From: Candidatus Poribacteria bacterium
Lineage (GTDB): Bacteria > Poribacteria > WGA-4E > WGA-3G
Reading direction: 5' to 3'
Length of the DNA stretch: 64,000 bases
Assembly (NCBI GenBank): GCA_965197475.1
Contig: CBDANF010000003.1
Location: 1,696,001-1,760,000 of the forward strand
The translations under genes were made by a program, and so were the position numbers. Of this stretch, positions 41,655 to 64,000 are shown one piece after another (position 1 is the first letter of the stretch; the number at the start of each line of letters is the position of its first letter). Below the pieces are notes generated by a model that did no database searches, had not been told where the DNA came from, and was given only the letters and a program-made list of their open reading frames with translations.

Positions 41655-42068
41655 TCAAAGTTGGTCTTCAATCCATTCATTATCGTGGTCAGGATTATAA
41701 ATTAAGCCTTTTTTGATGTCAACACAAAGATCAAGGAGTTCCAAAATCATGTGCCCCACAAGGACAGGCGTATTCTTTGGTAAGTCTGTTACCCTTATAG
41801 TCTCCTTTCGTTCCAACACCGTAAATTCGACCGTTGAATAAATAATCCGGTCTACAATACCGTTTGCTGTCCTCGCTCGTGTCGTCCCGACAGGCATCAA
41901 ACCAAGTTGTTCAATGAGCGACTTCGGTAACGATAACCGAGTCGCTCCAGTATCAACAAGTGCATTTTCAACAGTGGCGCGCCGAACCTTTTCAGGTTTG
42001 ATAACGCCTGCGTTTGCCAAATTCAGATCTTTTAGATTGGTGAGTTCAATTTTTGTCGTATGTTTCAT
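41655..42068 (-). CDS. Retropepsin-like (clan AA) aspartic protease, copy 1
   Basis: ALVDTGAT, VLVG..LE.LDL. Confidence 0.88.
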   Translation of the reverse strand: MKHTTKIELTNLKDLNLANAGVIKPEKVRRATVENALVDTGATRLSLPKSLIEQLGLMPVGTTRARTANGIVDRIIYSTVEFTVLERKETIRVTDLPKNTPVLVGHMILELLDLCVDIKKGLIYNPDHDNEWIEDQL

Positions 42069-42200: not shown

Positions 42201-42614
42201 TTACCATTGCTCTTCAATCCATTCATTGTCATGATCTGGGTTATAAGTTAATCCTTTTCTGATATCAAGACAGAGGTCAAGCATTTCCAAAACCATGTGA
42301 CCCACCAGGACAGGCGCATTATTGGGCAAGTTGGTTACCTCCAGCGTTCCTGTTCGTTCAAGGACAGTAAATCGGACCTCCGAATAAATAGTCCGGTCTG
42401 CGATACCATTTGAGGTCATAGCTCTCGTCGTTCCAACGGGAGTCAACCCGAGTTGTTCAATAAGCGACTTCGGTAACGACAACCGAGTCGCCCCAGTATC
42501 AACAAGTGCATTTTCAACAGTGGCGCGCCGAACCTCTTTGGGTTTGATAACGTCTGCCTCTGCCAAAAATTGATCTTTTCGATTCACGAGTTCAATTTTA
42601 GTTGTATGTCTCAT
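42201..42614 (-). CDS. Retropepsin-like (clan AA) aspartic protease, copy 2
   Basis: ALVDTGAT; same length as and highly similar to copy 1. Confidence 0.88.
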   Translation of the reverse strand: MRHTTKIELVNRKDQFLAEADVIKPKEVRRATVENALVDTGATRLSLPKSLIEQLGLTPVGTTRAMTSNGIADRTIYSEVRFTVLERTGTLEVTNLPNNAPVLVGHMVLEMLDLCLDIRKGLTYNPDHDNEWIEEQW

Positions 42615-42791
42615 TTTCGACACCTTATTGGCTACCAAAAACAGTTGGCTTGTGTGTCTATGTTATGTTTTCTCCAAAAAATTTACACATCGCATATTTT
42701 AGAATCTGTTTATAAGCGTATCACAAAGGAAGAGGGATGTCAAGTTTTTTGAAAAGAAAAGGGGTGTAAATATTTTGTCAATTATGCGGAT

Positions 42792-42987: not shown

Positions 42988-45288
42988 TTACTTCCTTATC
43001 AACATCTTCCGCGTCGCAGTAAAATCCCCTGCTTTTAATGTATAGAAATACACACCACTGGCGACAGACTCACCAACTTCGTTCTTCCCATCCCAATGTG
43101 CCGCACGACTCTTGCCTTGATAGATACCGACAGACTTATGACCCAACGCCAAGGTGCGTACCACTGTGCCATCTACAGCATAGATAGTCACCTTCACATC
43201 TGCAGACTCTGCTAACTGATACGGTATCCACGTTTCTGGGTTGAATGGGTTTGGATAGTTCGGTAATAAGGATGTCTTTTTCGGGGTTAACGCTGCCAAA
43301 AGTTGTTGTAGAAAGAGAATTCCGCGCTGCGAGGTTGCATCTGTCAAGTTTAGCTGCTGTGCTTGGGATAGCCACTGCTGTACCTCTTCCCTTGTCGGAG
43401 CGATATCCATATTTTGACTTAACACCGCTGGCGCGGCTGCACCTCCACCTATCACACCAGCAACTTGAACCAGGTCCACGATGTTAACAACGTCATCTTC
43501 GTTAACATCTGCCGGATTACCTCCTTCCGGGACTTCTTGATTGAAACTTGATGCAACAAGAACTAAATCTGAAATGTTTACAACCCCATCCCTATTCACA
43601 TCTCCAAAAATCGGTTCAACTACCGATGCACTTTCAAAGGTAGGAATATAACGTAGTCCATCTGTGCCAATAAAGTGTCCTGAGACGCTCACAGTTGAGG
43701 CTTTGACATAGCGAACTTTAAACGTTCCAGTGAAAAGTGTACCGTCACCGTTGCCAACCCCGCCAGCAAGATAGTCTCCCCCGCTGCTTGAGATACGTTC
43801 AAGTGCTGTCCCATCGTAATCCCAAGTAAGGCGATAGTCTTTCACGTTTTGCCCACCGGCAATGTCAACGTTGAAAATGAGTTGTTGGTGACGAGCGGGT
43901 GACAACACTGAAGATGGCGTAACACTAACAACTGCGGATGAAGGAACCGGTGGTGGTTCAACTATCTTGCCGCCGCCGACCAAATGACTCAAACGGTTGC
44001 CGTCGCTGTCTGTGAGGATAACGTTAGAAAGATTGAGGTTTGATTCTTTCACATCAACAACTTCAAATGTGATGGTGGCGAGAATACCGTCACCGCTGCG
44101 GTCATTAGCGAAATTAGTAGCACCAAGCGTTACGTTATTATTCTCTACAATTGGTTGCACGAAATACGACCCTTCTGTTAGGTAATCGCCGTTAATGCTT
44201 GAAACATAACGGATCGCAGTGTGATCAAATTCTAAAGTAAGTTGGTATCCGCCTACCGTTTCCCCTTCAGTAATGTTTATGTTAATAGAAAACTCTTCAC
44301 CAATAACTGGTGACACTACGGGATTAGGTGTGATGCTAACCTTAGCGGGATACTTCCACAGTCGGATTGTGTTATCATCGCTTCCACTTGCGAATGTTTT
44401 TCCATCCGGACTAAAGGCAACGCTGTTGACATCATCCCTATGCTCTGTGAGTGTGCCCAGATGTTCACCTGTCTCAACATCCCACAAACGGATGGTATTG
44501 TCAGCACTTCCACTCACAAGTGTGTTTCCAATCGAGTTAAAGGAAATGCTCCAGATAACATTCTTATGCCCAATGAGGGTGTGCTTGATAGTACCTGCTG
44601 CAACATCCCACAAACGGATAGTACCGTTAGTACTGCTACTAGCAAGCGTTGCGCCATCAGGACTAAACACGACACTCCAGACATCACCTGTATGCTCTGG
44701 AAGGGTGTGATTGAGAACGCCTGTTGCAACATCCCACAGGCGGATGGTATTGTCCAAACTCCCACTTGCGAGTGTCTGTCCATCCGGACTGAACGCTACA
44801 CTATACACACCCCCCGTATGCCCTCTGAGCGTGTGCAGCGCTGCTCCCGTTGCCACATCCCACAGGCGGATTGTCCTGTCCGAACTCCCACTTGCGAGTG
44901 TCTGTCCATCCGGACTGAACGCAATGCTTAAGACACCCCCCGTATGCCCTCTGAGCGTGTGCAGTGCTGCTCCCGTTGCCACATCCCACAGGCGGATGGT
45001 CCTGTCCGAACTCCCACTTGCGAGTGTCTGTCCATCCGGACTGAAGGCTACACTCCAGACATTACTAGTATGCCCTCTAAGTGTTCGTAGGTGCGTTCCT
45101 GTCTCCACATCCCACAAGCGGATGGTCCTGTCCGAACTCCCACTTGCGAGTGTTTTTCCATCTGGACTGAACGCTACACTATACACATAACCCGTATGCC
45201 CTTTAAGGACGGTGGATGGAATATATTGGGCAAAGGTGTTTAGGGAAAACACGGTTAAAAGAATGAGTATCGTCAAAGTTGTTTTCAT
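42988..45288 (-). CDS. Secreted WD40 + cohesin + dockerin protein with FlgD-Ig/secretion-type C-terminal domain
   Basis: Signal peptide, 7 GH..WD repeats, two cohesin-like segments, GDVNRDGVVNISDL, LPNYPNPFNPETWIPYQL..WDGKNE..SGVYFY. Confidence 0.9.
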   Translation of the reverse strand: MKTTLTILILLTVFSLNTFAQYIPSTVLKGHTGYVYSVAFSPDGKTLASGSSDRTIRLWDVETGTHLRTLRGHTSNVWSVAFSPDGQTLASGSSDRTIRLWDVATGAALHTLRGHTGGVLSIAFSPDGQTLASGSSDRTIRLWDVATGAALHTLRGHTGGVYSVAFSPDGQTLASGSLDNTIRLWDVATGVLNHTLPEHTGDVWSVVFSPDGATLASSSTNGTIRLWDVAAGTIKHTLIGHKNVIWSISFNSIGNTLVSGSADNTIRLWDVETGEHLGTLTEHRDDVNSVAFSPDGKTFASGSDDNTIRLWKYPAKVSITPNPVVSPVIGEEFSININITEGETVGGYQLTLEFDHTAIRYVSSINGDYLTEGSYFVQPIVENNNVTLGATNFANDRSGDGILATITFEVVDVKESNLNLSNVILTDSDGNRLSHLVGGGKIVEPPPVPSSAVVSVTPSSVLSPARHQQLIFNVDIAGGQNVKDYRLTWDYDGTALERISSSGGDYLAGGVGNGDGTLFTGTFKVRYVKASTVSVSGHFIGTDGLRYIPTFESASVVEPIFGDVNRDGVVNISDLVLVASSFNQEVPEGGNPADVNEDDVVNIVDLVQVAGVIGGGAAAPAVLSQNMDIAPTREEVQQWLSQAQQLNLTDATSQRGILFLQQLLAALTPKKTSLLPNYPNPFNPETWIPYQLAESADVKVTIYAVDGTVVRTLALGHKSVGIYQGKSRAAHWDGKNEVGESVASGVYFYTLKAGDFTATRKMLIRK

Positions 45289-54984: not shown

Positions 54985-55563
54985 TTAGTTGATCGCGGCA
55001 GATTTAAGGTGCTTCCATCCCTCAATAAGTAAGGAAATACCGCGAATTAGACATGCTACGACAGTGGCTGTGGCGAGTATTAACCCGCCTTGCTTGATGG
55101 TAAGGTTTTCGGGAGCATAAAGGTGCATCCATGCAAGGTAAAGAAAAGTAAGCATTTTCATAGTCCCGTAGACAGCACGACTGATACGAGACCGCATGAG
55201 CGCGTGCGCGAGTCTACTTTTCGGTGGAGTTATGTAGTGTTGCAAGTTGTCTGTTAATATCCCACGTGTCATGACAACGAGGGGAATCCATAAGGGAAGA
55301 TATCCTGCCACAGTGAAGTAAACCCAGAAGACGATCTCGATAATTCTGTCTGCTCCTGTGTCAAGGATTGCGCCGAACTCGGATGTTTCGTTTCGTATGC
55401 GTGCCACAAAACCGTCAACCGCATCCAGCGTGAATATAAGCGCAATTGTTGCAATGCAGGCGATGTCTAAGTAGGGATGTTCTCCAAACATTGCAATGAC
55501 AAAAAAGGTTAAGAAAATGCGACAGAGGGTTATAGTGTTTGCTATCATGCCGGGTTTCGTCAC
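54985..55563 (-). CDS. CDP-alcohol phosphatidyltransferase family protein
   Basis: ANTITLCR; DAVDGFVAR..ETSEFGAILDTGAD; overlaps the upstream gene by 4 bp. Confidence 0.92.
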   Translation of the reverse strand: MTKPGMIANTITLCRIFLTFFVIAMFGEHPYLDIACIATIALIFTLDAVDGFVARIRNETSEFGAILDTGADRIIEIVFWVYFTVAGYLPLWIPLVVMTRGILTDNLQHYITPPKSRLAHALMRSRISRAVYGTMKMLTFLYLAWMHLYAPENLTIKQGGLILATATVVACLIRGISLLIEGWKHLKSAAIN

Positions 55564-57227
55564 TTTTTCGGCACTGCTGTTTCAAGATATTTCTCGTCTG
55601 TTTCTATATCGGGTGGGTATTGAATTTCCCAGAGTTTGATATGTGATGCGGCGAAGTCCGTTTTAGGAAACACGGGTTTAAAGCCTCTGTATCCAAAGGG
55701 GTTTTTATTTAGAAGGGAGTCATGTGGGTCGTCAGGTGTGACAAGGATGTGTGTCGCCTCGTGTGTTTTGAGGTATTCAAGTGCTTCGCGTTCGGTTTTG
55801 GCGTGGTGAACATGTTGATTGTAGAGGTATATCCAGTTCGGTAGATAATGGTCTTGATCGATGAGGGTTTTAACGTCAGCAAGCACGTTGAGTTGGCTAC
55901 CGAACCGCCAATGTGCGGCGACAACACCGTCTTTTAGATTGGTTTTGATCCATGCAAATGTATCGTTGAGTATGCCATGTCCGGGAATAGCGGTGCGCAT
56001 CTGTGTCGCAGCATAAAGTGAGAATCGGGCGTGTCCGCCTATTGGTGCCCAAAAGAGGATGAGGGCGAGTGCGATGGCTGCTGCAATTTTATTGGTTTGT
56101 GTGTTGTTAAGGAAATTTTCGACTGTCTCTGCAAGCATCTTGATGCCGAGTGCAGTAAAGATAAAGACACTACCGTATCTGCCCGTCCAAAAACTAAAAT
56201 AGGTGTTCTTGAGTTCAGAAACGGTGTGCATGAGTGGGGTGTTCATTAAGATTGTTGTTGTCTCAAAGTTTTTGAGTTGTGTGAAAAGGTAACCGAGTCC
56301 GATAGCGAGCATTAAGACTGTCAATCCGAGTGAAAGTTTTCGACTGTGGCTTTTTAACGTCTCTGCTGTCTGAGGGATTGTAATAAGCAACTGCCGTAAT
56401 GCACGGATTACCAAAATCGCTATCGGTGGCACAAGCACAAAGGTAGTCAAGTGTTCAGCAAAGCCCACGCCACTGCGATATGCAGGCGCGATGATGTAAA
56501 GCATAGGCACAAATGAACACACCCAAAGCAGGTAATACCATAAATCTGTTTCGCTTTCTGAAGTAAGAAACCGCCATATCTCTATTGTGTAAATGATGAG
56601 AAGGAATGCACCAAAGCCTTCCCAGGATAGTCCGCCGAGAAGCGTAAAGAAGCCACTAATAAGTGTTAAAACGGTCCGCTTACGTGAGTTTTGCGTTTGC
56701 AACGCGATCAAATAAAAAATGATGGCACTGATAGCGAGTAAAAGACACCAGCAGTCTCTATCACCGAAACCGACGGTGCTGCGCCCAATGGTGCCGGGCA
56801 GCGTTGCAATCAGGATGCCCGTGGTATTCGCCACGAACGCACCGAATGTGCTATAAAGGAAAAAACAGAGAACGCCTAACCCCAGCACAAAACAGACAGT
56901 CGGCATGTAGATACAAACATGATAGAGGGATACGTCTTTGAAAAAAAGATGTGCCACTTTATAGGTATAAGCAAGCATATAAGAATAGAGTGGTAACAAC
57001 AACCCGTTATCTCTACCAATCGGCATCCATCGGTGCATATCGCGGGGAGGTAGTTTTCCCTGTTGGACGATAGTGTTTGCCTGCCAATAGTAGAAGTATC
57101 CATCATTTTCAAGGAACTGTCCATCAGGGAGGGTTTCCGCGCTTTGAATGCGTATCCAAAAGGCGAGAAAGAGAATGCTGCTGAACAGGAGGAGCGAGAC
57201 GAGGTGTTTGAAAAGTGGGGTTTTCAT
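55560..57227 (-). CDS. STT3/AglB/PglB-like GT-C glycosyltransferase with atypical acceptor motif
   Basis: IR..., ENDGYFY, GFGDRD (DxD), TVSE, AAHWRFGSQLNVLA..TLIDQ at the WWDYG position; multi-TM. Confidence 0.75.
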   Translation of the reverse strand: MKTPLFKHLVSLLLFSSILFLAFWIRIQSAETLPDGQFLENDGYFYYWQANTIVQQGKLPPRDMHRWMPIGRDNGLLLPLYSYMLAYTYKVAHLFFKDVSLYHVCIYMPTVCFVLGLGVLCFFLYSTFGAFVANTTGILIATLPGTIGRSTVGFGDRDCWCLLLAISAIIFYLIALQTQNSRKRTVLTLISGFFTLLGGLSWEGFGAFLLIIYTIEIWRFLTSESETDLWYYLLWVCSFVPMLYIIAPAYRSGVGFAEHLTTFVLVPPIAILVIRALRQLLITIPQTAETLKSHSRKLSLGLTVLMLAIGLGYLFTQLKNFETTTILMNTPLMHTVSELKNTYFSFWTGRYGSVFIFTALGIKMLAETVENFLNNTQTNKIAAAIALALILFWAPIGGHARFSLYAATQMRTAIPGHGILNDTFAWIKTNLKDGVVAAHWRFGSQLNVLADVKTLIDQDHYLPNWIYLYNQHVHHAKTEREALEYLKTHEATHILVTPDDPHDSLLNKNPFGYRGFKPVFPKTDFAASHIKLWEIQYPPDIETDEKYLETAVPKK

Positions 57228-57299
57228 AAAAAACTATAAAGAAGGGAACCGGTTGTGACACCAGTTCCCCACTTATGCGTTAATACGCAAGTGTAAGGT

Positions 57300-58730
57300 T
57301 TAACGATATAGATCCGAATGATAGTCGCGAAGAGTTGTCAAACGTTCTCCCGAACAGATACCACGTTGCATGAGATAATTCTGACATTTCGTGAAAAGTT
57401 CACCACAAGGTTCCGTTATCGCCGTGCCATCAGCACGCCTGCCTATGATTATACTACGGATGCACGTATAGGTCGCACACGCAGTGTCTAAAATGCAGAT
57501 CGGATTGATACATGCTGTGGCGGTCGTGGTACAACCACCATTGGGTGGGGGTGTGTTGCATCCACCATTGGGTGGGGGCGTGTTACAGCCGCCGTTTGAA
57601 GGGGGCGTGTTACAGCCGCCGTTTGAAGGGGGCGTGCCGCCGCCGTTCTGACCACCTAACGCAAGATAGTTGCTGGTGCCTTGCCCCATACCAACGCCAC
57701 CACCATCGCCAGATTGTGAGCCGCTGCCATTGGGGTAGTTGTGCAGGTGAATACACTTAAAATAGCCATTAGGATCCGCATCGCAATCGATGGTGGAGCC
57801 GTTGATGGTAAGTGAAGCAGGGCAGGGCCCCGATACCCATTCTTCATGCCCATTCGGTGTGCAAGGTTTAAAATATATCCCACAAGCAATACAAGGGAAA
57901 GCAGGTCTATGTCTCAATTCTTCCGGTTGACAACTCCAATACGGATCACCGCACCCCTTGTAAGTGCCATCGTCCTCTGGACAGGTTTTACAATGATTGT
58001 TTGCTGTTGGCACAATCTCCGTGCAGCTTTCATGTGCACACGTTATAACTGGGGTATCGCTATAGGTGACAGTCCACGACGCATCTATCTGTTTTGTGAT
58101 GGGCGTTCGGGACCCTTCCCGCCAGTCTCCTCCAAATCGGATAGCAACCGGTGTTTTGCTCAGACTCAGTTGAAAGGTTGCATCCTGCTCCGTGAGGATT
58201 GCCGGCTTCGGGACGATGGTAGATGTCACATTCTTTTCGTGCGTGCCGGGATAAAACCTGCTTGTTTCGACAGGCGCATTTATATCGCCAGAACTGTAAC
58301 CGGCTTTGACACGGTAGCACGGGAAGACAACCTTTTGAAACCACTCTACTTCTTTGTTTTCTTCCGTCTGATACCACGGGACATAACCGAAGGTATACCA
58401 TCTTTTGCCCCAGTCACCAACCTTTCGAACGGTAGACGCGCCTTCGCTAAACGTAAATTCAATGTTTCCAAATCCTGTAGCGAAGATACTGGCGTAGTAG
58501 GAGGCATGCGTTGGTGGTTTTTGGGGTTCCCATGAACCTCCCACCAACTCGCCAGATTGATCTACCTTTCGTGTCAAATGATAAGAACTGCCACTTGCAG
58601 GACTTACAGAGTAGTCCGTTCCTGTTGTTATTAAGAACTCAACATCAGCACTCTCTGACACAGGGACTAAGATCAATGGTAGTGCCATTATGAACATAAA
58701 CGTAATTGTAACATAAAAATTAAGTCTCAT
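57300..58730 (-). CDS. Secreted Cys/His-rich protein, array unit 1
   Basis: Signal peptide; CxxC/CxH modules; 4x TPPxNGGC(N/T); conserved tail ending RDYHSDLYR. Confidence 0.8.
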   Translation of the reverse strand: MRLNFYVTITFMFIMALPLILVPVSESADVEFLITTGTDYSVSPASGSSYHLTRKVDQSGELVGGSWEPQKPPTHASYYASIFATGFGNIEFTFSEGASTVRKVGDWGKRWYTFGYVPWYQTEENKEVEWFQKVVFPCYRVKAGYSSGDINAPVETSRFYPGTHEKNVTSTIVPKPAILTEQDATFQLSLSKTPVAIRFGGDWREGSRTPITKQIDASWTVTYSDTPVITCAHESCTEIVPTANNHCKTCPEDDGTYKGCGDPYWSCQPEELRHRPAFPCIACGIYFKPCTPNGHEEWVSGPCPASLTINGSTIDCDADPNGYFKCIHLHNYPNGSGSQSGDGGGVGMGQGTSNYLALGGQNGGGTPPSNGGCNTPPSNGGCNTPPPNGGCNTPPPNGGCTTTATACINPICILDTACATYTCIRSIIIGRRADGTAITEPCGELFTKCQNYLMQRGICSGERLTTLRDYHSDLYR

Positions 58731-58731
58731 T

Positions 58732-59664
58732 CTAATATCCTCCATCAATTATAGGTATTGGGACAGGTCGATCATTCGACTGTTGTAGCGTATGTTCTAA
58801 ACCGAATTTGCGGTAGACTTCTCTTATTGCCTCTTCTCTTTTTCTATCCTTTGCCTCTCTGGAGCTCGGGTCTCCACTATAGAGTCCACCATCTATAAGC
58901 GGCACGGGCCCTTGGGCCGCTGCGATCAGCGTTTCGATTTGTGCTGAGATGCGATTCCATTCAGCAGTATCCCCTCGGCGTTGTGCTTTTGCAAGTTCTG
59001 CTTGGAACGCCTCATGCTGTTCCCACTGTTCGAGGGTGGGGGCGAACCCTACTCCATCTTTATAGAAGATAGTGACGGTATTATCATAGTGTCTTAGTGT
59101 TTCCCCGTTGTGGTTCCGCATGTGCTGCCAGTTTGCACCGATAGGGGGCGGGTCTTCTCCCCATTCTTTACGATACGCCTCTAACCTTTTCCGTTCCTCT
59201 CTATAAGTCTCATAGAAAAGTTGTTTAGTGGCATCATCCATTTTTGAGAACCTCTCAACACATTCTTCTGGCGACATTTCCAAGAAATCCAAAAACTCCT
59301 TTTCAGGATAACTCAGTTTTGAAAATACCTCTTTGAGTTGCTCTGGTGACATTTTCAACCAACTCACAGTTTCTGTCGGCTGTGTTGATTTATCCTTCGG
59401 CACTGTCCGATGCCAATGATCACCATGCCAATATCCTGTTTCCCGAGATTCGCCCGGAGGCGGTGGTCTGACACCAGGCTCAGGCGTGTTTACTTCCTGT
59501 GGTGAACCCTTTGGCTTAGGTCCGTCTTCCAAAAGTTTTTTGGTTGCATCACCTAATACCATTTCCGACTCAGTGTCAGTATCCCGCGGTATCAGTAAGA
59601 ACACACCCGCAATTCCAATCAGTAGCATGAGGATTGCAAGTCCCCATATCATCTGCTTTTTCAT
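58732..59664 (-). CDS. Membrane-anchored HWH-motif protein, unit 1
   Basis: MKKQMIWGLAILMLL.., PPPPG..GYWHGDHWH, WGEDPP. Confidence 0.8.
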   Translation of the reverse strand: MKKQMIWGLAILMLLIGIAGVFLLIPRDTDTESEMVLGDATKKLLEDGPKPKGSPQEVNTPEPGVRPPPPGESRETGYWHGDHWHRTVPKDKSTQPTETVSWLKMSPEQLKEVFSKLSYPEKEFLDFLEMSPEECVERFSKMDDATKQLFYETYREERKRLEAYRKEWGEDPPPIGANWQHMRNHNGETLRHYDNTVTIFYKDGVGFAPTLEQWEQHEAFQAELAKAQRRGDTAEWNRISAQIETLIAAAQGPVPLIDGGLYSGDPSSREAKDRKREEAIREVYRKFGLEHTLQQSNDRPVPIPIIDGGY

Positions 59665-59692
59665 AAGGATTCTCCTTATCTTTCATTTGCCT

Positions 59693-59857
59693 TTATTTCG
59701 CTGCGTCCAGCGTGCAAGGCGGTTTGTTTTGTTCCATACAAGCGGGGATTTCTGCCTGCGTAGCATCAATCATTTTGATTGTGCCAAAGAGCAGTCCGCC
59801 ACCCATAATAACAATAAGTGCCACGGTCAGTCCTATTTTTAAAAATTTCGTTTTCAC
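59693..59857 (-). CDS. Small 1-TM peptide with Cys pair (54 aa)
   Basis: Not in the ORF track. GAAAGGAGG RBS, GTG start, KTKFLKIGLTVALIVIMGGGLLFG..IPACMEQNKPPCTLDAAK. Confidence 0.7.
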   Translation of the reverse strand: MKTKFLKIGLTVALIVIMGGGLLFGTIKMIDATQAEIPACMEQNKPPCTLDAAK

Positions 59858-59963
59858 AAATTATACACCTCCTTTCAAAATTAGTCAAAAAGACCGACCA
59901 AACGATGACAACTGTAAATCAAAACATCAGTATGAAATACCTTTCATAATTAAAGACACAGTT

Positions 59964-60146
59964 TTAGACCGAAAAGGGTGCATACGATATAAAAAAATGA
60001 ATTTTGTCTAAAGATTTGGTAAAACTACCGCTTGCGCTCCTCACTTCGCGAAAGTTTTTCACACTATCCTGTATCCGAAAGCACAGAAAGAGAATGCTGA
60101 TGAGCAATAGGAGCGGGAGGATTTGTTTGAAAAGTGGGGTTTTCAT
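59964..60146 (-). pseudogene. 5' stub of the STT3-like gene (duplication junction)
   Basis: MKTPLFKQILPLLLLISILFLCFRIQ matches the start of 55560..57227, then runs into unrelated sequence. Confidence 0.75.
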
Positions 60147-60157
60147 AATAAACTATA

Positions 60158-60193
60158 AAGTGGGGAACCGGTTGCGACACCGGTTCCCCACTT
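60158..60193 (-). terminator. Hairpin downstream of the Cys-rich gene (copies at 62835-62870 and, weakened, 57244-57269)
   Basis: AAGTGGGGAACCGGT-TGCGAC-ACCGGTTCCCCACTT, a 15-bp stem followed by a T-rich tract on the minus strand. Confidence 0.6.
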
Positions 60194-60218
60194 ATGCGTT
60201 AATACGCAAGTGTAAGGT

Positions 60219-61517
60219 TTAACGATATAGATCCGAATGATAGTCGCGAAGAGTTGTCAAACGTTCTCCCGAACAGATACCACGTTGCATGAGAAGATTC
60301 TGACATTGCGTGAAAAGTTCACCACAAGGTTCCGTTATCGCCGTGCCATCAGCACGCCTGCCTATGATTATACTACGGATGCACGTATAGGTCGCACACG
60401 CAGTGTTTCTAATGCAGATCGGGTTGATGCACGCTGTGGCGATTGTGGTACAGCCACCATTTGCCGGGGGCGTGTTACAGCCGCCGTTTGAAGGGGGCGT
60501 GCCGCCGCCGTTCTGACCACCTAACGCAAGATAGTTGCTGGTGCCTTGCCCCATGCCAACGCCGCCGCCATTGCCTTGTTGTCCACCACCATTACCTTGT
60601 TGACCGCCGCCATTGCCGCTACCACTACCGCTACTTGGGAACTGGTGGATATGCGACGGATCACACCTATAAAAACCTTTTACAGTACAATAAACATTTC
60701 CTCCATCCTGGGTGATGTTAACGGGGCAATTAACTTGCCATGCATGTGCATATGCTTCACTTGGATCAATAATGTGAATGCCGCACTCACCCCGGATTTT
60801 ATCGTTAATCGTGACGGAGTAACTTCCATTGTAAGGATCCGCATTAACGTCACGAGTGATGCCTGCCTCCCATTTCCAATATGTTGACTCCCCAATAACA
60901 AAACTGAGTGATGCGCTTGGCGTTGTACTTGCTTGTGCAGTAAGTGCCTTTTGTTTGCTTTTGTATGTCACAATACTACGTGAACGAGACTGGACAACAC
61001 CAGTAGCTGATACATTGACGGTAGTAGGACTGATTTCCTCGGCAGTCCCAATTTCGTCGGTATTATAAAGCCCGTTCATTTCTTTTATTCTAAAAGAGTA
61101 AACCTCCCTCTCTGCTTTTTTCAGGGGCTCAGAGGCCCAATTGCCAATGGGATAATCCCGTGTCTTTTTCTTAAGGGTAAAAGCAATTTCGCCGTATCCG
61201 GTGGCATTAACCATAATCGTTATGTAGTGAAAGTCTCCAGGTTTGGTAGGTTCCCAATCTTCCTCAAGAATAAGGCTACCAAAATAACTCCCTTGAGCTG
61301 CAAGGGAATAAATCACTCGTTCCCCATGGTAATTTGTTTTATTTCCTGGAGTTGATATAATTACCGGATTAGAGACGTATAATCCGTTAGAATCCATATC
61401 CGAGCGGTCTTCTGCCCAGAGTTCATTACGAATCCAGAAAAAAGAAGCATTTATGTCAATATGAAAAGCAAAAAATGTGAAAAAGATGACGCATATCCAT
61501 AGTCGCTGATTTTTCAT
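60219..61517 (-). CDS. Secreted Cys/His-rich protein, unit 2 (divergent N-terminus)
   Basis: Signal peptide; N-terminal ~290 aa unlike unit 1; same Gly linker and C-terminal tail; 2x NGGC repeat. Confidence 0.8.
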   Translation of the reverse strand: MKNQRLWICVIFFTFFAFHIDINASFFWIRNELWAEDRSDMDSNGLYVSNPVIISTPGNKTNYHGERVIYSLAAQGSYFGSLILEEDWEPTKPGDFHYITIMVNATGYGEIAFTLKKKTRDYPIGNWASEPLKKAEREVYSFRIKEMNGLYNTDEIGTAEEISPTTVNVSATGVVQSRSRSIVTYKSKQKALTAQASTTPSASLSFVIGESTYWKWEAGITRDVNADPYNGSYSVTINDKIRGECGIHIIDPSEAYAHAWQVNCPVNITQDGGNVYCTVKGFYRCDPSHIHQFPSSGSGSGNGGGQQGNGGGQQGNGGGVGMGQGTSNYLALGGQNGGGTPPSNGGCNTPPANGGCTTIATACINPICIRNTACATYTCIRSIIIGRRADGTAITEPCGELFTQCQNLLMQRGICSGERLTTLRDYHSDLYR

Positions 61518-61535
61518 AAGTAGTCTCCTTTTATT

Positions 61536-62333
61536 TTAATAGGAATGTTTTTCCTTGTAAAGTTCATATAGATGTTCAACGCCCAAGCGTTGATAGAGCT
61601 CTAAAACCGCTTTATTATCAAGTTTTATCTGATTCTCTATAGGAATTGGATCTCCATAATACCCAAAACCGGTAGGATCAGGGACCTCCCCTTGTGATGA
61701 GTCAACAAGAGTTTGAATCTCGCTTCTAATACGTTGTATCTCCGCTAAGGTATCACCGGAATATAACTCGCCATTTTTGAGATCTGATAATTTATCTTTC
61801 AAGGCTGCACGTAATTGCTTGTATTGTTGCAACTGTACAGGCATCGGTGCGAAACCTGTTTTTAAATCATAATGAGACACGACAACTGTATTTCTATAAT
61901 GCCGAACGACGTTTCCGTGATTATCACGAAAGTGTTGATATGAACCGTCTGGCGATGGGTCTTCTCCCCATTTAGCTCTATATTCCGCGAGTTGCTGCTC
62001 CCGGAGTGCTTTGACCCTTGCCTTAATTTCTGCTTCAGAAAGTTCAGGCAGTGTTTGCAGAGTTGTAGCGGTATCCGCGGGTGCCGCATGCGGTTCTTCG
62101 TGCCAAACACCATCGTGCCAGTGTCCGTTAGGTGATACACCGGGCGGTGGTGGTTTGCCCGCTTCTTGTGCAGACACCTGTTGCTTTGGTCCGTCCTCCA
62201 AAAGTTTTTTGGTTGCCTCACCTAATACCAGTTTCGACTCAGTGTCGGTATCCTGCGGCATCAGTAAGAAAACACCAGCAATTCCAATCAGTAGCATGAG
62301 GATTGCAAGTCCCCATATCATCTGCTTTTTCAT
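61536..62333 (-). CDS. Membrane-anchored HWH-motif protein, unit 2
   Basis: First ~50 aa nearly identical to unit 1; PPPPG..GHWHDGVWH, WGEDP. Confidence 0.8.
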   Translation of the reverse strand: MKKQMIWGLAILMLLIGIAGVFLLMPQDTDTESKLVLGEATKKLLEDGPKQQVSAQEAGKPPPPGVSPNGHWHDGVWHEEPHAAPADTATTLQTLPELSEAEIKARVKALREQQLAEYRAKWGEDPSPDGSYQHFRDNHGNVVRHYRNTVVVSHYDLKTGFAPMPVQLQQYKQLRAALKDKLSDLKNGELYSGDTLAEIQRIRSEIQTLVDSSQGEVPDPTGFGYYGDPIPIENQIKLDNKAVLELYQRLGVEHLYELYKEKHSY

Positions 62334-62361
62334 AAGGATTCTCCTTATCTTTCATTTGCCT

Positions 62362-62529
62362 TTATTTCGCTGCGTCCAGCGTGCAAGGCGTTTTGTTTTG
62401 TTCCATACAAGCGGGGATTCCTGCCTGCGTAGCATCAATCATTTTGATTGTGCCAAAGAACAGCCCTCCACCCATAAAAACAATCAGTGCCGTGGTCAGT
62501 CCTATCTTTCGCCACCGTTGCTTTTTCAC
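62362..62529 (-). CDS. Small 1-TM peptide with Cys pair (55 aa)
   Basis: GTG start after GAAAGGA; ..KIGLTTALIVFMGGGLFFG..IPACMEQNKTPCTLDAAK. Confidence 0.7.
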   Translation of the reverse strand: MKKQRWRKIGLTTALIVFMGGGLFFGTIKMIDATQAGIPACMEQNKTPCTLDAAK

Positions 62530-62634
62530 AATTATATACATCCTTTCAAAATTAGTCAAAAAGACCGACCAAACGATGACAACTGTAAATCAAAACATCA
62601 GTATGAAATACCTTTCATAATTAAAGACACAGTT

Positions 62635-62823
62635 TTAGACCGAAAAGTGTGCATACGATATAAAAAAATGAATTTTGTCTAAAGATTTGGTAAAACTACC
62701 GCTTGCGCTCCTCACTTCGCGAAAGTTTTTCACACTATCCTGTATCCGTATCCAAAAGGCGAGAAATAGGATACTGATGAGCAATAGGAGCGGGAGGATT
62801 TGTTTGAAAAGCGGGGTTTTCAT
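62635..62823 (-). pseudogene. 5' stub of the STT3-like gene (duplication junction)
   Basis: MKTPLFKQILPLLLLISILFLAFWIRIQ versus MKTPLFKHLVSLLLFSSILFLAFWIRIQ; diverges after codon 28. Confidence 0.78.
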
Positions 62824-62895
62824 AATAAACTATAAAGTGGGGAACCGGTTGCGACACCGGTTCCCCACTTATGCGTTAATACGCAAGTGTAAGGT

Positions 62896-64000
62896 TTAAC
62901 GATATAGATCCGAATGATAGTCGCGAAGAGTTGTCAAACGTTCTCCTGAACAGATACCACGTTGCATGAGAAGATTCTGACATTGCGTGAAAAGTTCACC
63001 ACAAGGTTCCGTTATCGCCGTGCCATCAGCACGCCTGCCTATGATTATACTACGGATGCACGTATAGGTCGCACACGCAGTGTTTCTAATGCAGATCGGG
63101 TTGATGCACGCTGTGGCGATTGTGGTACAGCCACCATTTGCCGGGGGTGTGGTGCAGCCACCATTTGCCGGGGGTGTGGTGCAGCCACCATTTGCCGGGG
63201 GCGTGTTACAGCCGCCGTTTGAAGGGGGCGTGCCGCCGCCGTTCTGACCACCTAACGCAAGATAGTTGCTGGTGCCTTGCCCCATACCAACGCCACCACC
63301 ATCGCCAGATTGTGAGCCGCTGCCATTGGGATAGTTGTGCAGGTGAATACACTTAAAATAGCCATTAGGATCCGCATCGCAATCGATGGTGGAGCCGTTG
63401 ATGGTAAGTGAAGCAGGGCAGGACCCCGATACCCATTCTTCATGTCCTTCTGGGGTGCACGGTTTAAAATCTATCCCACAGATTACACAAGGCCAAGATT
63501 TATGACGGGACGCATCTGGTTGACATGTCCCGTAAGAATCGCCACATCCTTTTGGTGTGCCGTTTACATTACAAGGTACATAGTGCTGCTCCGCTGTTTG
63601 AACTATCTCGGTGCACGCATTATGCTTACAAGAAATCACATTCGTATCACTATAAGTGACATTCCATTGAGCATTTATCTGCCTTGGAATGGGACTACGG
63701 GAGTCCATACGCCAACCTGAACCAAGTCGGAGTGCTGCACTCGGTGATTTACCGATCGTGATTTGGTATGTGCTTGAAATACCAACCAGCACTGCAGGCT
63801 TCGGGACCATGGTAGACGTTACATTCTTTACATGCGGTGTGCCTGTATAAATACGACTTGTGTCTACAGGTGCCGTTATGTCGCCAGGGTGATGTCCTGC
63901 TTCAATACGCCAGCAAGGAAAAACTATTGGTTGAGACCATTCTACTTCTTTATTTTCTTCCGTTTCATACCATGTTGTCAAACCAAGGGTCAATGCACTA
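62896..64000 (-). CDS. Cys/His-rich protein, unit 3 (5' end outside window)
   Basis: Frame open to the window edge; homologous to unit 1 from WY.TEENKEVEW onward; 4x NGGC repeat; same tail. Confidence 0.8.
   Translation of the reverse strand, partial: SALTLGLTTWYETEENKEVEWSQPIVFPCWRIEAGHHPGDITAPVDTSRIYTGTPHVKNVTSTMVPKPAVLVGISSTYQITIGKSPSAALRLGSGWRMDSRSPIPRQINAQWNVTYSDTNVISCKHNACTEIVQTAEQHYVPCNVNGTPKGCGDSYGTCQPDASRHKSWPCVICGIDFKPCTPEGHEEWVSGSCPASLTINGSTIDCDADPNGYFKCIHLHNYPNGSGSQSGDGGGVGMGQGTSNYLALGGQNGGGTPPSNGGCNTPPANGGCTTPPANGGCTTPPANGGCTTIATACINPICIRNTACATYTCIRSIIIGRRADGTAITEPCGELFTQCQNLLMQRGICSGERLTTLRDYHSDLYR

Follow-up and report, generated by a model that had tools for sequence, protein, structure and literature searches.

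Organization of the locus

The stretch of DNA analysed here (hereafter the window) comprises 64,000 nucleotides (nt) and corresponds to positions 1696001-1760000 of contig C3 in a Candidatus Poribacteria genome of 5.7 Mb in 3 contigs. At its end lies part of a tandem array of a cassette encoding a small membrane peptide, a protein with an HWH motif and a secreted Cys/His-rich protein. DNA past the window end was fetched as segments L001 (window 64001-84000) and L014 (window 55001-75000). The array consists of six tandem units on the minus strand, spans window ~57,143 to 72,620 and is located between an extracytoplasmic function (ECF) sigma gene and an STT3-like gene. In 5' to 3' direction of the minus strand, the order is ECF sigma factor, six units, STT3-like gene and CDP-alcohol phosphatidyltransferase gene. 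Unit U1 occupies window 72620-69780, U2 69779-67067, U3 and U4 together 67066-62739, U5 62738-60068 and U6 60067-57143, all on the minus strand. A BLAST search of one unit against the whole genome has the array extending to about window 72,425. The initial annotation, which was restricted to the window, had reported at least three tandem units of ~2.7-2.9 kb. This observation is confirmed, and the array is larger than reported, since the extension beyond 64000 brings it to six units; what had been described is its downstream third.

Each complete unit contains, in this order, a leader that ends in TTGACT-17-TATAAT with GGAGG in its spacer, the small membrane peptide with a GTG start, the HWH-motif protein with its N-terminal membrane anchor, the Cys/His-rich protein, which carries a signal peptide and measures 432-476 amino acids, a strong T-tailed hairpin and a stub of the STT3-like gene (79-85 nt). 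The gene content is as claimed before, with peptides of 54-65 amino acids (aa), HWH proteins of 255-310 aa, Cys/His-rich proteins of 432-526 aa (among the listed open reading frames, ORFs) and stub ORFs of 60-62 aa. Within the window, copies of a 300-nt repeat start at 57145, 60064 and 62741 (spacing 2919 and 2677) and are 91-92% identical. The fusion point between the 5' end of the STT3-like frame and the 190-210-nt leader is present four times (60067, 62738, 67066 and 69779), the start-codon motif of the STT3-like gene five times (57227, 60146, 62823, 67145 and 69864). At all four internal junctions the stub is fused to the leader at the identical nucleotide. A single founding duplication is evident. 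Its breakpoints lay ~85 nt into the STT3-like gene and ~200 nt ahead of the peptide gene, which accounts for the same STT3 stub at every internal junction.

All units are direct repeats, and no inverted repeats were found among them. Promoter-like sites (11/12 matches) are present in five of the six units and terminator hairpins likewise in five; five units combine complete genes with both signals. Hence, these units are complete paralogues and not silent cassettes, and no silent cassette was found in the array.

In U6, the gene of the small membrane peptide, which is 54 aa long and has a pair of Cys in its tail, is located at 59693-59857, that of the HWH-motif protein (310 aa) at 58732-59664 and that of the secreted Cys/His-rich protein (476 aa from its ATG) at 57300-58730, all on the minus strand, as are the remaining features of the array. 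The HWH protein has an N-terminal membrane anchor, the motif PPPPGE...GYWHGDHWH and a variable C-terminal domain. The Cys/His-rich protein has a variable N-terminal half and a constant C-terminal part. Its gene is followed by a terminator-like hairpin at 57243-57270 (11 pairs, T-rich tail; L014 2270-2243), directly upstream of the start codon of the STT3-like gene. The leader/junction segment of the constant arm (59858-60067) carries a TTGACT-17-TATAAT site (L014 4888-4860; 11/12 matches) and a GGAGG before the peptide GTG. It is joined to the stub at 60068-60146, a duplication scar that consists of the first 79 nt of the STT3-like frame.

U5 is built in the same way, with a peptide gene at 62362-62529 that starts at a GTG after a GGA-rich site, an HWH gene at 61536-62333 (265 aa), a Cys/His-rich gene at 60219-61517 (432 aa), whose N-terminal type differs from that of U6, and a terminator-like hairpin of 15 pairs at 60158-60193 (L014 5193-5158). 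Its leader/junction segment with a promoter-like site (62530-62738; L014 7559-7531) adjoins the next STT3-like 5' stub, again a duplication scar, at 62739-62823. The terminator-like hairpin after the Cys/His-rich gene of U4 follows at 62835-62870 (L014 7870-7835), and the C-terminal 367 codons of this gene reach from 62896 to the window end at 64000; the gene continues to L001:326. The rest of U4 and U3, U2, U1 and the ECF sigma gene lie beyond the window end.

Four leader copies were compared and share 98.6-100% identity. A leader motif of ~40 nt (TTGAC-like box, GGAGG, TATAAT-like box and GTG) is conserved in 9 of 12 leaders across loci and species. In the array it is located at L014 4860-4888, 7531-7559, 11859-11887, 14572-14600 and 17397-17425, and it was also seen in leaders of the loci L017, L019, L022, L023, L027 and L032. 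If the two boxes represent a promoter, the GGAGG ribosome site would fall outside its transcript.

Constant arms and variable cores

The six-unit alignment was scored in 100-nt windows. A 5' arm of ~500-600 nt, comprising the leader, the peptide gene and the part encoding the HWH N-terminus, is 90-100% identical between units. The same degree of identity is found in a 3' arm of ~400-600 nt with the Cys-rich C-terminus, the hairpin and the stub. The middle of 1.8-2 kb is 30-55% identical and thus unalignable, except for pairs of units sharing core types, U2/U5 (48-100%) and U4/U6 (53-98%). The variable region covers the 3' part of the HWH gene and the 5' part of the Cys/His-rich gene. A constant-variable-constant profile with boundaries inside genes, as noted in the initial annotation, is therefore borne out in the six-unit alignment.

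Synonymous divergence (dS) amounts to 0-0.22 in arm windows and is at least 1 or saturated in middle windows. Because the arms are alike at synonymous sites, they are young and not merely constrained. The ratio of nonsynonymous to synonymous divergence (dN/dS) in the middles, measurable only for the alignable pairs U2/U5 and U4/U6, is 0.08-0.75. This indicates that the middles are old lineages under purifying selection. A comparison of dN/dS between constant and variable parts had been suggested at the outset; it yields near-zero dS in the arms and points to old rather than fast-evolving middles.

The two parts of the HWH protein also differ in their closest relatives. For the C part of all six copies, the best external match shows 64-85% identity versus 28-68% for the best array copy. 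Residues 1-60 share a mean identity of 78-85% within the array and 18-65% with those same external relatives. In the tree of the N-arm the six HWH copies fall into one well-supported 9-row clade with three outside sequences nested in it. In the C-part tree, the sister of each copy is an outside protein, and the approximately unbiased (AU) test rejects monophyly of the array (p-AU 5.9e-60). Similarly, in four of the five full Cys/His-rich proteins the N-terminal core is nearer to an outside protein, while the C-terminal 85 residues are 78-100% identical within the array. From the discordance of trees and dS, it follows that gene conversion or recombination has made the arms alike and that the cores are old lineages shared among Poribacteria.

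Damage in the array and the STT3-like gene

The Cys/His-rich gene of U3 ends after 99 homologous codons; a full-length version of this type (P0006, 510 aa) was found on a metagenome contig. Between the U3 stump and the 5'-truncated peptide gene of U4 lies a 160-nt piece (L001:1312-1471, window 65312-65471). With 98-99% identity, it corresponds to the terminus of an insertion sequence that is present in five copies and encodes a DDE transposase (PF01609). Since this remnant joins the stump to the truncated gene, an insertion followed by a deletion would have removed ~1.3 kb.

The STT3-like gene (55560-57227, minus strand) encodes a putative GT-C glycosyltransferase of 555 aa. Residues 11-302 match Pfam PF02516, the N-terminal STT3 domain (E = 2.1e-17, 64.2 bits, cut-off 24.5), and the score against TIGR04154 is 61 bits, far under the cut-off of 450. 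Acidic-loop motifs of the STT3 family are DxD and SVSE/TIXE. The corresponding motifs GDRD and TVSE show no variation among the window protein and six orthologues. Compared with these orthologues of 663-695 aa, the window copy lacks 109 codons (327 nt) in frame, at alignment columns 389-497. The deletion spans about four hydrophobic segments and a conserved SRDAMRYD loop and leaves the transmembrane core incomplete. STT3-like paralogues in the same genome appear to keep this segment, as judged from gaps between tblastn high-scoring segment pairs.

At the position of the WWDYG motif of yeast STT3, the window protein has HWRFG, which is common to the whole orthologue group (7-sequence profile against the C-terminal domain 2lgz, E = 0.0092). 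The WWD of WWDYG contacts Ser/Thr of the N-X-S/T sequon. If this contact holds here, the exchange makes it unlikely that the STT3-like enzyme is a canonical N-glycosylating transferase. With STT3, AglB and PglB the enzyme shares the GT-C type, the N-terminal STT3 domain and the DxD-like and SVSE-like motifs GDRD and TVSE, and its gene adjoins those of secreted proteins with Gly/Ser/Asn/Thr-rich linkers. In contrast to them it carries HWRFG for WWDYG, and the copy in this genome has 109 residues missing.

The last unit continues, as stated in the initial annotation, into the STT3-like gene and the gene of the CDP-alcohol phosphatidyltransferase (192 aa; 54985-55563, minus strand), which is the last of the run and contains a PF01066 domain (67.4 bits versus a cut-off of 22). 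The STT3-like gene is not the full and intact gene assumed there. A second, paralogous pair of STT3-like and CDP-alcohol transferase genes is found at C3:2522090-2524637.

Related loci

The named homologues of the cassette proteins come from Candidatus Poribacteria. With one Cys/His-rich protein as query, matches were obtained in 6 of 176 Poribacteria genomes. Profiles reach further, with the HWH profile matching 86 of the 176 genomes, including all 39 of the same genus (39/39), and the Cys/His-rich profile 52 of the 176. Among 1.84 billion cluster representatives, the latter profile finds 158 at E <= 0.001.

Seven loci in five other genomes were inspected over 18-20 kb around each. None of them has a second unit. 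An STT3-like gene, 64-81% identical to the window copy, is located directly downstream in six of the seven. An ECF sigma gene lies upstream in two, and a CDP-alcohol transferase gene was found in none. The conserved neighbourhood argues for a functional tie of the STT3-like gene to the cassette; the deletion in the window copy argues that this tie is dispensable or was lost in this genome. Thus the proposed link of the array to an STT3-like gene holds, whereas an intact shared modifier is contradicted by the 109-codon deletion and by HWRFG at the WWDYG position.

Seven further loci in other species include four with arrays of 2-3 units and repeated 5' arms (85-93% over 350-790 nt); one of these also repeats the 3' arm. 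In the genome studied here, at least ten other loci with peptide, HWH and Cys-His genes are present, and the small membrane peptide has 13 tblastn matches. A sister cassette family at L023 (C2:1185401-1195400) and L027 (C3:2826401-2836400) encodes a 158-aa peptide, an HWH-like protein and a Cys/His-rich protein. Two of its units stand in tandem, and another contig holds a third copy; the three share arms (5' ~900 nt, 3' ~600 nt) of 91-100% identity, and their middles are unalignable. Given this family and the arrays in other species, recombining arms around divergent cores are a trait of the cassette family as a whole.

Protein families, folds and predicted pairing

The peptide, the HWH protein and the Cys/His-rich protein gave no match in Pfam, NCBIfam or PADLOC (PADLOC: 0 families for 10 proteins). 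In a Pfam search of 56 proteins chosen from 150 of the 158 Cys/His-rich representatives, 53 had no family and one had a dockerin domain. The remaining two gave a below-threshold FN3-like match and a YadA adhesin match that is probably spurious. Paralogous cassette proteins yielded only weak TPR matches, in some HWH-like proteins. Members of the Cys/His-rich family share a conserved Cys/His module ending in HTH-x-FP, to which a Gly/Asn/Ser-rich linker, NGGC repeats and a Cys-rich end domain are added in the subfamily linked to STT3. The NGGC motif is restricted to the five array proteins in this genome; it also occurs in proteins of all six STT3-adjacent loci. This co-occurrence with an STT3-like neighbour reflects orthology and is not independent evidence for a substrate relation.

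The AlphaFold2 model of the HWH protein (mean pLDDT 81.4) shows a membrane helix, a hairpin that the HWH motif forms and a mixed alpha/beta domain. Foldseek found no match for it in the PDB at E <= 0.001, and the matches of a wide VIA-align search were confined to helical hairpins of ~43 residues with Z <= 7.6 and did not exceed background. For the Cys/His-rich protein, the model (18 sequences) has a mean pLDDT of 45.9 and is unusable for fold search; its profile found nothing below E = 0.14 among PDB sequences. The ESM Atlas gave no usable hit for the HWH protein or the Cys/His module.

For complex prediction, residues 62-300 of the HWH protein and residues 22-240 of the Cys-rich protein of U6 were modelled as the cognate pair, together with three controls and custom alignments. 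The cognate pair reached a median ipSAE of 0.34 (runs 0.75, 0.34 and 0.28), the best of the three controls 0.00. Of 157 solved complexes 116 attain this mark, as do 2 of 215 mismatched pairs; with scores of 0.60 or under, however, only 18 of the 157 solved complexes attain it, along with both passing mismatches. The U6 runs agree in at least 27% of contacts, with a partner pLDDT of at least 49. The prediction thus weakly supports binding between the cognate HWH and Cys-rich proteins and, with it, the pairing of the two variable modules put forward in the initial annotation.

Short-read evidence

Exact short-read contigs of five cores (U6, U5, U4, U2 and U1) are present in two samples of one study, with spans of L014 2797-4488, 5815-6941, 8393-10056, 12867-13982 and 15357-17027. 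Reported read joints fall within the repeated arms and are ambiguous. In run X5, from another study, only 15 of 30 bins are covered, among them a piece of U3 at 98% identity; its uncovered bins are uninformative on absence. In run X3 the core depths are 21.3, 19.3, 51.5, 44.1 and 17.8 versus 80.2 for the flank, and in run X1 11.6, 12.2, 11.6, 6.1 and 6.8 versus 13.7, where depths do not equal copy numbers. Such unequal depths might reflect strains with different unit content. A sponge metatranscriptome run from another study has six small contigs that match the array exactly or nearly so, whereas the STT3-like and CDP-alcohol transferase genes have none; this is a hint of expression.

Discussion

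We regard it as fairly probable that the locus is a lineage-specific envelope cassette of Poribacteria, tandemly amplified to six units, that carries several matched HWH/Cys-His pairs and is not a programmed generator of diversity. Most likely, ordinary duplication together with gene conversion accounts for the array, rather than a new diversification machine. In its function, the cassette would presumably serve as a repertoire of matched envelope protein pairs. The ancestral locus would have been single-copy, as it still is in relatives, and composed of the genes for the ECF sigma factor, the small membrane peptide, the HWH protein, the Cys/His-rich protein and the STT3-like protein. After the founding duplication, unequal crossing-over between units would have built the array, and gene conversion or double crossovers in the arms would keep these alike and either move or retain the divergent cores. 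Part of U3 and U4 would then have been destroyed by an insertion sequence and a subsequent deletion. Each complete unit would be an independent transcription unit, and its variable HWH C-domain would bind the variable N-domain of the adjacent Cys/His-rich protein. In this way the array would give the cell several matched envelope or secreted pairs, expressed side by side. The constant C-terminal part with the Gly/Asn-rich linker, the NGGC repeats and the Cys-rich end domain may be handled by shared machinery, possibly the STT3-like enzyme.

In tandem paralogue arrays, the flanks evolve in concert by unequal crossing-over and gene conversion. The present array resembles them in its direct multi-gene repeats, the scar at every junction, the near-zero dS of the shared segments, the mosaic identity tracts and the decay by insertion sequence and deletion. 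It differs in that homogenisation stops inside two genes and leaves a paired old core between the arms, and in that core lineages are shared across species.

Several points weigh against amplification of an envelope cassette as the explanation. The data fit an old array with homogenised arms or a young array with imported foreign cores alike. The complex prediction is a weak pass, and its scope is the cognate U6 pair. The three cassette proteins are without relatives in Pfam, NCBIfam, PADLOC and the PDB, and the HWH model is without a fold match above background. A distance of 2-3 nt separates the promoter-like -10 box from the downstream GTG annotated for the peptide, therefore either the peptide start or the reading as a promoter is uncertain. 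The STT3-like gene, being internally deleted, may have no role in this genome. Because the short-read contigs stop at each arm and no contig connects two cores, the order of the units is that given by the assembly. The genome bin has a contamination of 6.97%, and the contigs from the RNA library may derive from DNA.

It is highly improbable that single-copy cassette alleles of co-existing strains were strung together via shared arms, even though the contamination, the contigs of two samples that stop at every arm and, as a hint, the core depths that differ among themselves and from the flank in the same run (depths again not being copy numbers) would suit such an artefact. A fusion of stub and leader can arise only from a real tandem join, and its four copies carry small differences (98.6-100%). 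The U3/U4 join with its insertion-sequence remnant and truncated gene is not creatable by a collapse of alleles. In addition, the contig is 4.17 Mb long, all five cores are present in both samples, and shorter arrays exist in other independently assembled genomes, including single-contig ones. A dedicated diversification system, as favoured by the initial annotation, would use the arms as built-in recombination sites for a regulated swapping or addition of paired variable modules served by one downstream modifying enzyme. We consider this quite unlikely. The arms do recombine, with boundaries inside genes; the sister family has near-identical arms even on different contigs, C2 and C3, other species have arrays with repeated arms, and the STT3-like neighbour is conserved in six of seven loci. 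However, the Pfam matches of 16 flanking ORFs, which lie between window 39926 and L001:19416 and thus reach ~17 kb to one side of the locus and 11 kb to the other, include no recombinase or reverse transcriptase, and the array has no inverted repeats. Start codons, a promoter-like site and a terminator are present in each complete unit, purifying selection acts on the old cores, the modifying enzyme carries an internal deletion, and general homologous recombination suffices for the pattern. The earlier interpretation is therefore partly supported: recombination at the constant arms stands, given arm dS of ~0-0.2 versus at least 1 in the middles and the discordant trees of N-arm and C part, whereas the dedicated swapping machine is not supported.

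An array that stores several specificities of a cognate-pair system for recognition or antagonism, comparable to polymorphic toxin-immunity or self-recognition loci, with the secreted Cys/His-rich protein as effector or ligand and the membrane-anchored HWH protein as its specific receptor, protector or tether, is unlikely in our view. Variation extends across the 3' end of one gene into the 5' end of its neighbour, a layout expected for co-varying products, and the weak binding predicted for the U6 pair would agree with it. Core types are common to several species while the arms differ, and the family is multi-copy and widespread (HWH 86/176 and Cys/His-rich 52/176 Poribacteria genomes). Against this stand the lack of any match to toxin, immunity or defence families, the lack of secretion-system genes among the Pfam matches of the flanking ORFs, an "immunity-like" partner whose gene lies upstream and whose size exceeds that of typical immunity proteins, and a predicted binding that covers only the cognate U6 pair. 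A more specific form of recognition system, particular to Poribacteria, would consist of allele-specific pairs of HWH and Cys/His-rich proteins, arms acting as portable homology blocks and an STT3-like enzyme that modifies the NGGC linker; we regard it as doubtful. If it were true, the arms including the 40-nt leader would let cores move between loci, replicons and strains. Populations of sponge symbionts would then have shifting specificities, for kin discrimination, host binding or phage decoying, and the atypical STT3-like enzyme (HWRFG) would modify the NGGC-repeat linker.

The orphan toxin-tip/immunity cassette arrays of polymorphic toxin systems (CdiA-CT/CdiI, Rhs) likewise have a constant segment followed by a variable one that spans a gene end and the neighbouring gene, several tandem variants, and arms allowing recombination. 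In contrast to these, the units here are complete and look expressible, and no toxin or immunity family or secretion system was found, the flanks encoding housekeeping or eukaryote-like repeat proteins. Furthermore, the downstream partner in the array is large and secreted, and its N-terminus varies, not its C-terminus. IdsD and IdsE of Proteus mirabilis are encoded by neighbouring genes with matching variable regions and are thought to bind in an allele-specific manner, for which there is a weak prediction here. Neither a sequence or fold relation nor a type VI secretion context connects them with the array, which holds several variants per genome versus one per strain. Variable segments between constant segments are also known from pilE/pilS and vlsE and from diversity-generating retroelements. 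The array differs from pilE/pilS and vlsE by having no expression site with promoterless partial cassettes; five of its six units are complete with a promoter-like site and a terminator, which sets it apart from antigenic variation by silent cassettes. Diversity-generating retroelements produce an adenine-specific substitution pattern. The array has no reverse transcriptase among the flank matches and no template repeat, and its cores are unalignable, compared with the point-mutated cassettes of both kinds of system. Shufflons and other site-specific switches are not indicated either, since the repeats are direct and the flank Pfam matches include no recombinase.

Poribacteria are uncultured and widespread sponge symbionts, and to our knowledge it is largely unknown how they present themselves to host, phage and each other. 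A full-text search of the literature on Poribacteria gave nothing relevant to the cassette at the level of titles and abstract openings. What the locus defines is an envelope cassette of three genes without a counterpart in Pfam, NCBIfam, PADLOC or the PDB. Its recombining arms around old paired cores are a testable candidate for strain-level diversity of surface or secreted proteins in a symbiont. Moreover, the array offers a natural set of cognate and non-cognate pairs, together with an STT3-like enzyme with a changed acceptor motif.

Flanking genes and additional observations

The ECF sigma gene at the upstream end of the array (L001:8556-9203, minus strand, beyond the window) encodes a protein with sigma-70 regions 2 and 4 (PF04542 and PF08281; TIGR02937 with 75.9 bits versus a cut-off of 42.9). 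An anti-sigma role for the peptide or the HWH protein was set aside, as by sequence reading neither has a cytoplasmic domain before the membrane segment. In another species, locus L031 (G106:C29:425001-443000) is syntenic, with the same sulfatase, DUF6785 and enolase-like neighbours. It contains a sigma gene, two HWH genes and one Cys/His-rich gene and is without an STT3-like or CDP-alcohol transferase gene.

Rfam yielded nothing at E <= 1 for the 20 kb of the array region. A repeat element of ~122 nt (L014:18490-18611, window 73490-73611) is found upstream of the ECF sigma gene. A 301-nt query containing it gave 121 BLAST hits, and the element has very high contig depth in all four short-read runs compared. 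A second short repeat (28 hits) is located between the sigma gene and the first peptide gene.

Pfam matches of the flanking ORFs comprise seryl-tRNA synthetase, two small aspartyl-protease-like proteins, two WD40 proteins, an amidase, a glycosyl-hydrolase-like protein, a sulfatase and DUF6785/6784. Enolase-superfamily, SHMT-like, ankyrin and helix-hairpin-helix matches and two Rieske proteins were also obtained; one ORF matches no family. Two adjacent ORFs of 137 and 145 aa, on the minus strand at window 41655-42068 and 42201-42638, gave matches to aspartyl protease families of the retropepsin-like type. On both sides of the locus, repeat proteins of eukaryote-like type are encoded, namely a 766-aa WD40 protein at window 42988-45288 (minus strand) and, on the other side, a 428-aa ankyrin protein at L001:12854-14140 and a 341-aa WD40 protein at L001:16554-17579.

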